A stretch of 64,000 nt of DNA, taken from assembly GCF_045037415.1 (NCBI RefSeq), contig NZ_CP173438.1. One strand, 5' to 3'. Source of the stretch: Escherichia coli (GTDB taxonomy: Bacteria; Pseudomonadota; Gammaproteobacteria; Enterobacterales; Enterobacteriaceae). Made by a program: the position numbers. Shown here piece by piece: positions 7,953 through 10,900 of the stretch. Position 1 is the first letter of the stretch. Every line of letters starts with the position of its first letter.

Positions 7953-10900
7953 TACATACTACATACGGGCGACTCGTAGGCCTGATAAGACGCGACAGCG
8001 TCGCATCAGGCACCGAACGCCGAAGCCTCATTTATGCCTGGGCGACAACTGCTTCACAAGCATCGCCGCAATCCCAATCCCGTGCTGCTGCGCCAGGGTG
8101 TTACACAACTCATCGTCATAAAACCCCTGCATCATGCGCACCGAATCGCTGTTAAACGGGTTATCTTTCGAATCAAACAACTCGTTGGTTTTACGCATCT
8201 CTTTCAGCATGTTGCGTAAAAAAATCGCCTCAAACTGCTCCGCGGCCTGCTTAATATCATTGGCCTGAACCTTCGGCCCCATTAACGCATCGCTGCCGTC
8301 AATCCCGCCGCTGGCGTTCACTTTCATCAGATCACCTCCAGGTCGGCATCCAGCGCGCCCGCCTCATGCAGCGCCTGTAAAATCGACATAATGTCGTCCG
8401 GCGTTGCGCCTAAACTGTTCAGCGCATTGACCAGCGTTTTCAGGCTGCTCGACTCCGGCAAACTCACCACGCCCGGGCGCGCATGATTCACCGCGATATT
8501 GCTCTGCGGCGTTACCGCCGTGCGCCCGCCCGCAAAAGCATTTGGCTGGCTGACGTTGCTGGTTTCGTTAATCGAGACGGTCAAACTGCCGTGCGACACC
8601 GCCGCCGCATGCAGCGCAACGCCATCGCCCATCACCACCGTGCCGGTACGCGAGTTAAACACCACGCGGGCGCGGATTTTCTCTGCCTGCACCTGTACAT
8701 CATCCAGTTGCGACATAAATGCCACCCGCGCGCCGGGGCTGGTGGGCGCACGCACGCTGACGTTGGTAGAGCTCTGCGCAGTAGCAATGCCGCCAAACGA
8801 GGCGTTAATCGCCGCCGCAATATTGTTGGCATCTTTAAACGACGGACGTTTCAGGTTGAGGGTGATAGTGTCGCCCATCTGAAAATCGCTGGGGATCTCG
8901 CGCTCTACCGTTGCGCCGTTAGGAATTAACCCGGCGGTTGGCGTATTAACCGTTACGCTCGAACCGCTGGCCCCGGTGGCAGTCATCCCGCCCACCACCA
9001 CGCTGCCCTGCGCCAGCGCATAAACTTCGCCATCCGCGCCGTGCAACTGGGTCAGCAACAAAGTGCCGCCACGAATACTTTTGGCATCGCCAATCGACGA
9101 AACAGTGACATCGATGGTCTGCCCGCGCGAGTACATCGGCGGCAGCGTGGCGCTCACCGCTACCGCGGCGACGTTTTTCACCTTCGGATCGATTTTATTT
9201 GGCAGTTGCACGCCAAACTGGCGCAGCATATTGGTGATGGTCTGGTTGGTGAATTTGACCTGGTTTTTATCACCAGTACCGTCGAGGCCTACCACCAGGC
9301 TGTAGCCGACCAGTTGGTTTTCACGCACGCCCTGTACGTTGACCAACGACTCCAGCGATTGCGCCAGCGCCACGCCGGGCAGCGTCAGACTTACAGCGAT
9401 CGCTGCGGCCTTTATCCAGTTTTGCATTGCACTCTCCGGCATTAAATCGGGAACAGAGGATGGTTAAACAGCCGCGTCAACCAGCCTGCGGCGTTGGCGT
9501 CGCTTAACGCGCCGCGTCCGGCATAGGAGATGCGGGCATCGGCGATCCGCTGCGAGGAAACCGAGTTGTCGTTTTGGATGTCGTCGGCGCGCACCAGGCC
9601 GCTTAAGCGGATGTACTCATCGCCCTGGTTGAGAGTCAGCCATTTTTCGCCGCGAATTTCCAGGATGCCGTTAGGCTGCACCGCATGGACGGAAACGGTG
9701 ATCTCCCCGCGCAGGCTGTTCTGCTGCTGGGAAGTGGCGCTGCCGTCAAAGTCGCGGTTGGCGTCGATAGAGCCGGAAAGTTTATCTTTGGTGTGTCCAA
9801 AAATCGTGGGCGCGCCGATATCGACGGTGTTGCTTTTGCCGAAGTTGGTTTTCGCCTGTTTGCTCGACTGGGTGGACTCTTCGAGGATCACCGTCAGGAT
9901 ATCGCCCACGCGGTAAGCCCGCCGGTCGGCGGTGAGCGACCAGTTGTAGCCGGTTTCAAACACGCCCCCGGCACGCCCGTCTGCCGGAGGCGGCGCTTCG
10001 GTGGTTGGTGGCGCAAAGTATGCGTCGTCTTTTTTGACCAGAATGGCCTGCGATTCACACCCGCTAAGGAGTGGAAGCAGCGCCACCAGCCAGAGATAAT
10101 TTTTCACGTTCTGCCTGTTTAAATACAGTGAGTTATGTGCTCTTGTAGGTCGGATAAGACGCGTCAGCGTCGCATCCGACATTTCGGCCTTACAGCGTCT
10201 GGCTGATGTACTGCAACATATCGTCCGCAGCCGAGACCATTTTGGCGTTCATCTCGTACGCCCGTTGCACCGTAATCATCGCCACCATCTCGTTGACGAT
10301 ATCCACGTTCGATCCTTCCAGCGCGTTGTCCTGCAAGGTGCCAAGCCCATCTTCGCCCGGTACGCCTTCGGTCGGCTGACCGCTGGCGGCGGTTTCCAGA
10401 TAGAGGTTGTCACCCTCAGCGGAAAGCCCGGCCGGGTTGGCGAAGTTCACCAGCGTCAGTTGCCCTAACTCAGTCACGTCGCTGTCGCCGGGTAAGATCG
10501 CCGTCACCGTGCCATCCTCACCAAAAGCAACATTAGTCGCCCCCGCCGGAACGTCGATTTCCGGCTGCAACGGCAAGCCCTGCGAGTTGGTCAGTACGCC
10601 GTCAGCGTTCACCTGCAAGTTGCCGTCGCGGGTATAAGCGATATCGCCGTTGGCCTTTTGCACCTGCAAAAACCCCTGCCCCATAATGGCGACATTCATC
10701 GCGTTGTCGGTGGTTTCGACGTTGCCTTCGGTGAAGGTTTTCTGAGTGCCGACAATGCGTACGCCGCTACCGAATTGCAGCCCGGTCGGCATAATGTTGT
10801 TCTGATCGAGCATCGCGCCCGGCGCTTCCTGGGTCTGGTAAAACAGATCCTGAAACATCACCCGGTCACGCTTGAAGCCGGTGGTGTTAACGTTGGCGAT

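Follow-up and report, generated by a model that had tools for sequence, protein, structure and literature searches.

The lfgJ gene of the Flag-2 (lateral-type) flagellar locus of Escherichia coli encodes a conserved single-domain rod-binding protein, which was shown to lack any catalytic domain, and this short form was also shown to be the rule in the lateral-type loci of Enterobacterales and Vibrionaceae examined here. The analysis was centered on a 64-kb stretch of DNA (64,000 nucleotides of contig NZ_CP173438.1, hereafter the window), in which the Flag-2 locus extends from position 1 to ~36,300, starting with lafB/fliD, which the window edge cuts, and ending with lfhA, and is followed by the core genes rayT, yafL, dpaA, ivy, dnaQ, mltD, an rrn operon, and metNIQ. 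Annotation was compared with that of E. coli 30224_1#48 (NZ_OZ040716.1), which is 100% identical over the segment searched and whose annotated gene coordinates agree throughout with the open reading frames of the window. The features of lfgJ and its surroundings are as follows:

8028-8327, minus strand: lfgJ coding sequence, 99 aa, ATG start, intact, stop codon at 8028-8030
8049-8204, minus strand: region of lfgJ encoding the Rod-binding domain (residues 42-93, entire PF10135 length)
8325-8339, minus strand: translation start region of lfgJ, with the ATG at 8325-8327 and the Shine-Dalgarno sequence GGAGGTG at 8333-8339 (read from sequence)
7839-8027, no strand: lfgJ-lfgK spacer, 189 bp, with two inverted REP-like palindromes (BIME)
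8327-9427, minus strand: lfgI (P-ring protein), directly upstream of lfgJ and overlapping it
6462-7838, minus strand: lfgK (hook-associated protein 1), which follows lfgJ on the downstream side
5518-14747, minus strand: lfgBCDEFGHIJKL block of the Flag-2 locus, with lfgJ in the canonical flgJ position

Placed between lfgI and lfgK, lfgJ occupies the flgJ position of a rod/hook operon, and the lfgBCDEFGHIJKL order was also found in 30+ related loci. Base 8327 is common to the ATG of lfgJ and the TGA stop of lfgI (8327-8329), which creates an ATGA overlap, and the Shine-Dalgarno sequence lies 5 nt upstream of the start; such an arrangement is characteristic of translational coupling. Neither GH73 nor SLT coding similarity was found in any frame of the lfgJ-lfgK spacer by tblastn. 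The spacer hosts IS1397 in strain SK1144, and the accessible part of the De Maayer supplement notes the same insertion there for 1141_SBOY. Ren et al. 2005 (as cited in PMC6993521 and PMC2808357) described Flag-2 from E. coli 042. Assembly of Flag-2 in E. coli is not established: lfgC is frameshifted in strain 042 (PMC2808357), and IS1397 is inserted between lafB and lafA in 30224_1#48, the isolate matching the window, observations that weigh against the main explanation proposed below.

The only Pfam family matched by LfgJ was Rod-binding (PF10135; 53.3 bits, cut-off 25.1, E 4e-14), and the match of residues 42-93 covered profile positions 1-51 of 51. Residues 22-98 were aligned with residues 30-102 of K-12 FlgJ at 34% identity (BLASTP, E 5e-14), and the first-pass annotation was right in assigning the 99-aa product to the N-terminal rod-binding region of FlgJ. 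With the full-length FlgJ model of NCBIfam (TIGR02541), whose cut-off is 193 bits, LfgJ scored 67.7 bits and matched only positions 20-91 of 294. LfgJ falls below this cut-off and has no C-terminal GH73 domain and so none of its catalytic glutamates, which places it outside dual-domain FlgJ, and it belongs to the single-domain Rod-binding family (PF10135) by profile, architecture, and gene position. Approximately 20 variable N-terminal residues precede the Rod-binding domain, and the protein ends 6 residues after it; the invariant residues in the alignment are A28, A29, Q31, F32, E33, F36, M44, R45, D55, S60, D71, G85, and Q93. A sequence search found no solved structure for the rod-binding domain. 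Pfam detected no GH73, SLT, or M23 domain within the polypeptide. When the GH73 domain of K-12 FlgJ was searched by tblastn against six frames of the 64-kb window, the best match (E 0.33) lay inside lfgK and is a chance match; the earlier statement that LfgJ has no muramidase domain is borne out by both searches. The sequence also has no Sec signal peptide, which would be consistent with putative flagellar type III export.

lfgJ is a real gene under purifying selection rather than a truncation or sequencing error, because its dN/dS is 0.03-0.25 against 8 orthologues (Nei-Gojobori), its stop position is kept to within one or two codons in the same orthologues, its start combines a Shine-Dalgarno sequence with the ATGA overlap, and 1273 of 5426 complete E. 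coli genomes carry it, with the label 'rod-binding protein' in every row listed. The gene has already been named, and RefSeq holds the identical protein under the same label (WP_000867181.1). Could it nevertheless derive from a formerly dual-domain gene, as a truncated pseudogene or through faulty assembly? The FlgJ of most beta- and gamma-proteobacteria is dual-domain, and a published table gives the lateral FlgJ of Plesiomonas as 328 aa (PMC4481668), both of which would suit such an origin. However, no GH73 or SLT remnant was detected in any frame, the LfgJ sequence is identical across independent complete genomes, the kept stop and low dN/dS hold across genera, and every lateral cluster examined in Enterobacterales, Photobacterium, and Vibrio had the short form. 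This reading was rejected, with a probability that we regard as negligible. In particular, the first-pass annotation had considered that correcting a sequencing error might reveal a muramidase encoded downstream; this is excluded, since the spacer consists of REP/BIME sequence and the stop is shared by all 30 Enterobacterales orthologues.

These orthologues, which represent 12 or more genera, were obtained by scanning 100,044 species genomes. In 30 of 30 Enterobacterales loci, the protein had 97-139 aa, contained no GH73 domain, and had its gene in the lfgI-lfgK interval every time; the loci came from Escherichia, Pseudocitrobacter, Citrobacter, Phytobacter, Enterobacter, Pseudescherichia, Cedecea, Pantoea, Buttiauxella, Pluralibacter, Yersinia, and Erwinia. 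Close LfgJ homologues in Citrobacter, Leclercia, Scandinavium, Dryocola, Buttiauxella, and Pseudescherichia likewise have ~99-106 aa and the Rod-binding domain only. In Vibrionaceae, LfgJ has 167-176 aa in Photobacterium and 182 aa in the lateral cluster on chromosome 2 of V. campbellii, which was used as a proxy for the lateral system of V. parahaemolyticus. A word-based search with the Photobacterium protein matched Photobacterium alone. These proteins belong to the same lateral lineage as that of E. coli and also have the rod-binding domain only; their C-terminal tail of 70-80 residues matched no known domain, whereas the LfgJ proteins of E. coli, Citrobacter, and Yersinia end directly after the rod-binding domain.

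A wider view of the family was provided by an exhaustive HMMER search, which detected 1411 relatives (E<=0.001). Of their 138 best representatives, 51 carry GH73 and four carry an SLT domain, and five that were checked have nothing beyond the rod-binding domain. In a FlgI tree (neighbour-joining, midpoint-rooted, no bootstrap), the Enterobacterales Flag-2 loci, Photobacterium, the chromosome-2 cluster of V. campbellii, and Pseudomonas indica formed one lateral clade, and every locus outside this clade had a GH73 FlgJ. The one polar-type cluster that was read, that of Aeromonas caviae, encodes a GH73 FlgJ of 366 aa.

With regard to the rest of the E. coli cluster, all genes except five hypotheticals have flagellar, regulatory, or glycosylation annotations, and no lytic domain was detected in the hypotheticals by Pfam (E<=1), NCBIfam, or PHROGs. 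The features bearing on a possible lytic enzyme are as follows:

4524-5501: LafW, no family match, fold predicted to be flagellin/HAP3-like
16495-17427: 310-aa protein, weak match to FliB-type lysine methylase (NCBIfam, E 9e-10)
48164-48496: SLT domain of mltD, the sole SLT domain in the window, in a core gene 11.5 kb beyond lfhA

LafW was considered as a cryptic lytic enzyme and rejected on the basis of its predicted fold: the AlphaFold2 model (28-sequence alignment, pLDDT 70.6) resembles flagellins and HAP3 rather than lysozyme-like folds. The 310-aa protein had no match in a PDB sequence search. The remaining three hypotheticals are small orphans (126, 182, and 115 aa) in a 35%-GC island, with no signal peptide and no Pfam, NCBIfam, or PHROGs match. 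The part of the cluster to the left of the window (lafB-lafU) was read in strain SA186 and showed no GH73 or SLT similarity. When the SLT domain of P. indica (see below) was searched by tblastn against all frames of the window and the left part in SA186, mltD was the single match. The cluster therefore has no SLT-domain gene of the kind represented by sltF in its own flagellar operon. Taken together, annotations, domain searches, the LafW model, and the SLT and GH73 tblastn searches uphold the claim that the cluster encodes no recognisable lytic enzyme. Among the cargo entries listed in the accessible part of the De Maayer 2020 supplement, there is no transglycosylase or muramidase, and genes for the lysozyme inhibitor LprI are recorded in a few strains.

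A different state was found in the lateral-type clusters of P. indica, Stutzerimonas stutzeri, and Cellvibrio, in which the gene in the flgI-flgK slot encodes a Rod-binding+SLT fusion (398 aa in P. indica). The gene order of the fusion clusters is flgA, flgBCDEFGHI, the fusion gene, flgK, flgL, and a gene of the size of LafW. These clusters are orthologous to that of E. coli, with LfgB-I 55-65% identical except LfgD (39%) and LfgF (49%). The fusion proteins occupy the same slot as E. coli lfgJ and have a rod-binding domain that is 48% identical, but they carry in addition a C-terminal Slt70-like domain with ES, GLMQ, and AYNAG motifs, which E. coli LfgJ does not have. Where LfgJ stops at ...VKQLSPRHK, the P. 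indica protein runs into a linker and the SLT domain; no SLT domain follows the rod-binding domain in E. coli. The Rod-binding+SLT architecture was present in 120 of 120 listed protein clusters of relatives, those named being from Pseudomonadaceae, and the proteins are annotated merely as 'lytic transglycosylase domain-containing protein'. Among NCBIfam models, the fused domain scored best against that of the Borrelia flagellar transglycosylase BB0259 (E 1.5e-33), followed by Slt (2e-24), MltD (1e-8), and then MltF and EmtA; among solved structures, Slt-type enzymes, including E. coli Slt70, had the top scores. Judged by sequence similarity, Slt70 is the E. coli enzyme closest to the domain fused to LfgJ in Pseudomonadaceae, with MltD next. 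The fusions show that the rod-binding module has been functionally coupled to an Slt-like enzyme within the lateral lineage. No mention of them in lateral-type clusters was found in the searchable literature, outside which Garcia-Ramos et al. 2018 falls, and Rod-binding+SLT fusions at the lfgJ slot are a new addition of this analysis and a useful lead. In the unbootstrapped neighbour-joining FlgI tree, P. indica, with its SLT fusion, branches from within the short forms, so the fusion may be a late gain with little bearing on enterics.

On balance, lfgJ probably encodes a minimal single-domain cap or scaffold of the Flag-2 rod, and the wall would be opened by a separately encoded transglycosylase of the SLT family. 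By analogy with FlgJ of Salmonella, Rhodobacter, and Borrelia, LfgJ would be exported via the Flag-2 type III export gate and would act on the growing rod, promoting polymerisation of the rod proteins. Peptidoglycan would be opened locally by a Sec-exported lytic transglycosylase encoded elsewhere, which LfgJ would recruit or activate at the rod tip; FlgJ does this for SltF in R. sphaeroides and for BB0259 in B. burgdorferi. A separate SLT enzyme is proposed because of the SltF and BB0259 precedents and the Pseudomonadaceae/Cellvibrio fusions; by analogy, the fusions support, and do not prove, a pairing of E. coli LfgJ with a separate lytic transglycosylase. They narrow the candidate partners of LfgJ to SLT-family transglycosylases.

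Other routes through the wall can be envisaged. Of 5426 complete E. coli genomes, 5425 have full-length flgJ with GH73, every lfgJ carrier among them, and this dual-domain protein could supply the activity in every Flag-2-positive E. coli, which speaks against the main explanation. Vibrionaceae with a lateral system also have a primary polar flagellar system, and the polar-type cluster of A. caviae mentioned above has its own GH73 enzyme. The glucosaminidase of the primary FlgJ might cut for the lateral rod too, either exported by either apparatus or acting at lateral basal bodies. We consider this unlikely: in FlgJ the enzyme domain is attached to a rod-binding domain that has just 34% identity to LfgJ, and in Pseudomonadaceae the lateral-type clusters have an SLT domain of their own joined to LfgJ, an argument against plain borrowing of the primary enzyme by the lateral system.

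Alternatively, there may be no dedicated hydrolase at all, with the lateral rod passing through pores left by normal wall turnover and LfgJ serving as a cap only. A lytic gene is absent from the E. coli cluster and from the surroundings of lfgJ that were read in other Enterobacterales and Vibrionaceae loci. Salmonella FlgJ mutants without the enzymatic region reportedly keep residual motility (Hirano et al. 2001). Recent work on B. subtilis argues that basal bodies are captured at pores already present in the wall, with CwlQ dispensable for assembly. On the other hand, the rod measures 4 nm (PMC8517470), which exceeds the peptidoglycan mesh of <2 nm, and each Gram-negative single-domain FlgJ studied needed a transglycosylase (SltF, BB0259; PMC7277832, PMC8517470). 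In addition, independent fusions of GH73 or SLT to rod-binding domains show that selection has repeatedly favoured a local enzyme. Rod passage with no dedicated hydrolase has a low probability, similar to that of cutting by the primary FlgJ.

The first-pass annotation had concluded that an enzyme encoded elsewhere must be used. A separately encoded enzyme is indeed the likeliest reading and has indirect support from the Pseudomonadaceae/Cellvibrio fusions, but 'must' overstates the case: the activity might come in trans from flag-1 FlgJ, or the rod might pass without a dedicated enzyme. A more specific version of the separate-transglycosylase reading can be put forward tentatively: the wall-cutting enzyme might be a detachable module, fused to the rod-binding domain in Pseudomonadaceae/Cellvibrio and replaced in Enterobacterales/Vibrionaceae by a housekeeping family-1 transglycosylase that LfgJ recruits to the rod tip. 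In this context, Slt70 is the closest match, and the MltD gene lies 11.5 kb from the cluster. If this were true, the 99-aa LfgJ would be a minimal adaptor that aims a general cell-wall enzyme at one nanometre-scale site.

The general question is how envelope-spanning machines cross peptidoglycan without killing the cell, and in systems with a single-domain FlgJ the cutting enzyme must be found case by case. A short LfgJ is normal for lateral-type flagellar systems, and the observation made for E. coli is correct and ordinary, since single-domain FlgJ is a known class and lfgJ already has a name and a correct RefSeq annotation. Peptidoglycan was not discussed in the 2020 survey of 592 Flag-2 loci (PMC6993521), which makes the missing enzyme an unaddressed point and not a surprise. 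For E. coli the gap is real but expected, in a system without demonstrated function in this species. The value of the present analysis is modest: an artefact was ruled out, and the short form was shown to be the conserved state in the loci examined. The old database label 'peptidoglycan hydrolase' for proteins of 97-140 aa is misleading.

The dual-domain FlgJ of Salmonella and of E. coli flag-1 has a rod-binding region homologous to LfgJ and is also encoded between flgI and flgK; it differs in having a C-terminal GH73 beta-N-acetylglucosaminidase domain of ~160 residues, all of which is absent from LfgJ. Single-domain FlgJ has been recognized as a class since 2006 (Nambu et al., as cited in PMC8517470). 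The FlgJ of the R. sphaeroides Fla1 system is, like LfgJ, a small protein with the rod-binding region only, encoded in a flg operon, and the enzyme activity is provided by a separate Sec-exported SLT-family protein, SltF (PMC7277832); sltF lies inside the flagellar (flgG) operon, whereas the E. coli Flag-2 cluster has no such gene. Similarly, B. burgdorferi combines a rod-binding-only FlgJ with an unlinked, interacting SLT-domain enzyme, BB0259 (PMC8517470). As a spirochaete, Borrelia has its flagella in the periplasm and requires FlgJ for the hook and filament, not for the rod, and a BB0259-like protein is not in evidence in E. coli. In NCBIfam, it is the model of the BB0259 family that gives the highest score for the SLT domain joined to LfgJ in Pseudomonas.

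The position that lfgJ, encoding a 99-aa single-domain rod-binding protein, holds between lfgI and lfgK in the E. coli Flag-2 cluster is occupied in Flag-2-type clusters of three other bacteria by genes in which a Rod-binding domain (PF10135) is fused to a lytic transglycosylase (SLT) domain:

L035:6971-8167, fusion gene in the lfgJ slot, Pseudomonas indica locus
L088:8001-9113, fusion gene in the lfgJ slot, Stutzerimonas stutzeri locus
L089:8001-9017, fusion gene in the lfgJ slot, Cellvibrio sp. locus

The encoded proteins are 338-398 aa long, and their SLT domain resembles those of Slt70 and the Borrelia flagellar transglycosylase BB0259. 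Among the matches listed, this architecture was present in all 120 protein clusters, those with names belonging to Pseudomonadaceae. Such proteins are annotated only as 'lytic transglycosylase', and a description of the fusion architecture was not found in the searchable literature.

Naming also affects the LfgJ-type proteins, which are matched by four short NCBIfam profiles of 97-140 positions, NF009349-NF009352 (PRK12708.1-x). These profiles carry the name 'peptidoglycan hydrolase', and proteins of that size comprise the rod-binding region only; the legacy name probably explains the 'peptidoglycan hydrolase' labels attached to lateral FlgJ proteins in papers and UniProt. The length of Plesiomonas FlgJL has been given as 328 aa (PMC4481668).

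At no more than 13 kb from its lfhA end, the cluster is followed by four cell-wall-related core genes:

37195-37944, yafL, C40 peptidase
38256-38996, dpaA, peptidoglycan-Lpp amidase
43244-43690, ivy, lysozyme inhibitor
47792-49150, mltD, lytic transglycosylase MltD

The same genes are also present in E. coli K-12, where most of Flag-2 has been lost, and their closeness to the cluster therefore probably represents synteny rather than a functional link.

Repetitive and mobile elements are listed here together with the genes that flank the IS insertion:

610-1958, IS1397 transposase CDS (IS3 family)
1-377, lafB/fliD
2223-3137, lafA
7839-8027, lfgJ-lfgK spacer with two inverted REP-like palindromes, constituting a BIME
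36522-37019, rayT, REP-associated transposase gene, directly past lfhA

Lying between the rod/ring genes and the hook-associated genes, the BIME could possibly stabilise the mRNA or terminate transcription in part. In the isolate studied, the lafB-lafA intergenic region is interrupted by IS1397, an arrangement common to only 3 of 5426 genomes, and the insertion may affect filament-gene expression. In strains SK1144 and SK0189, the element is instead located in the REP-containing lfgJ-lfgK spacer, in agreement with the preferential targeting of BIME/REP sequences by IS1397.

Two further parts of the locus are these:

16495-19912 and 22823-23218, flagellin-modification gene set
19913-22803, low-GC island, located in the variable region flanked by lfgN and lfiJ

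GC content of the island is 35%, versus ~55% in the remainder of the cluster, and its three orphan ORFs (126, 182, and 115 aa) had no matches in Pfam, NCBIfam, or PHROGs. The modification set consists of a cytidylyltransferase, a 310-aa distant relative of the FliB lysine-N-methylase (E 9e-10, below the cut-off), and a protein of 812 aa in which GT2 and glycerophosphotransferase-like domains are combined.

One further gene is located 3' of lfgL:

4524-5501 (-), lafW

LafW is conserved at this position in those lateral-type loci of Enterobacterales and P. indica whose LafW sequences were compared. The protein is without a family assignment. In the AlphaFold2 model it has helices at its termini, an alpha/beta domain in the centre, and a 54-residue disordered N-terminal stretch. 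In Foldseek comparisons, the model matched flagellins and HAP3 (best E 4e-7), which suggests that LafW is an additional axial or junction-type protein.
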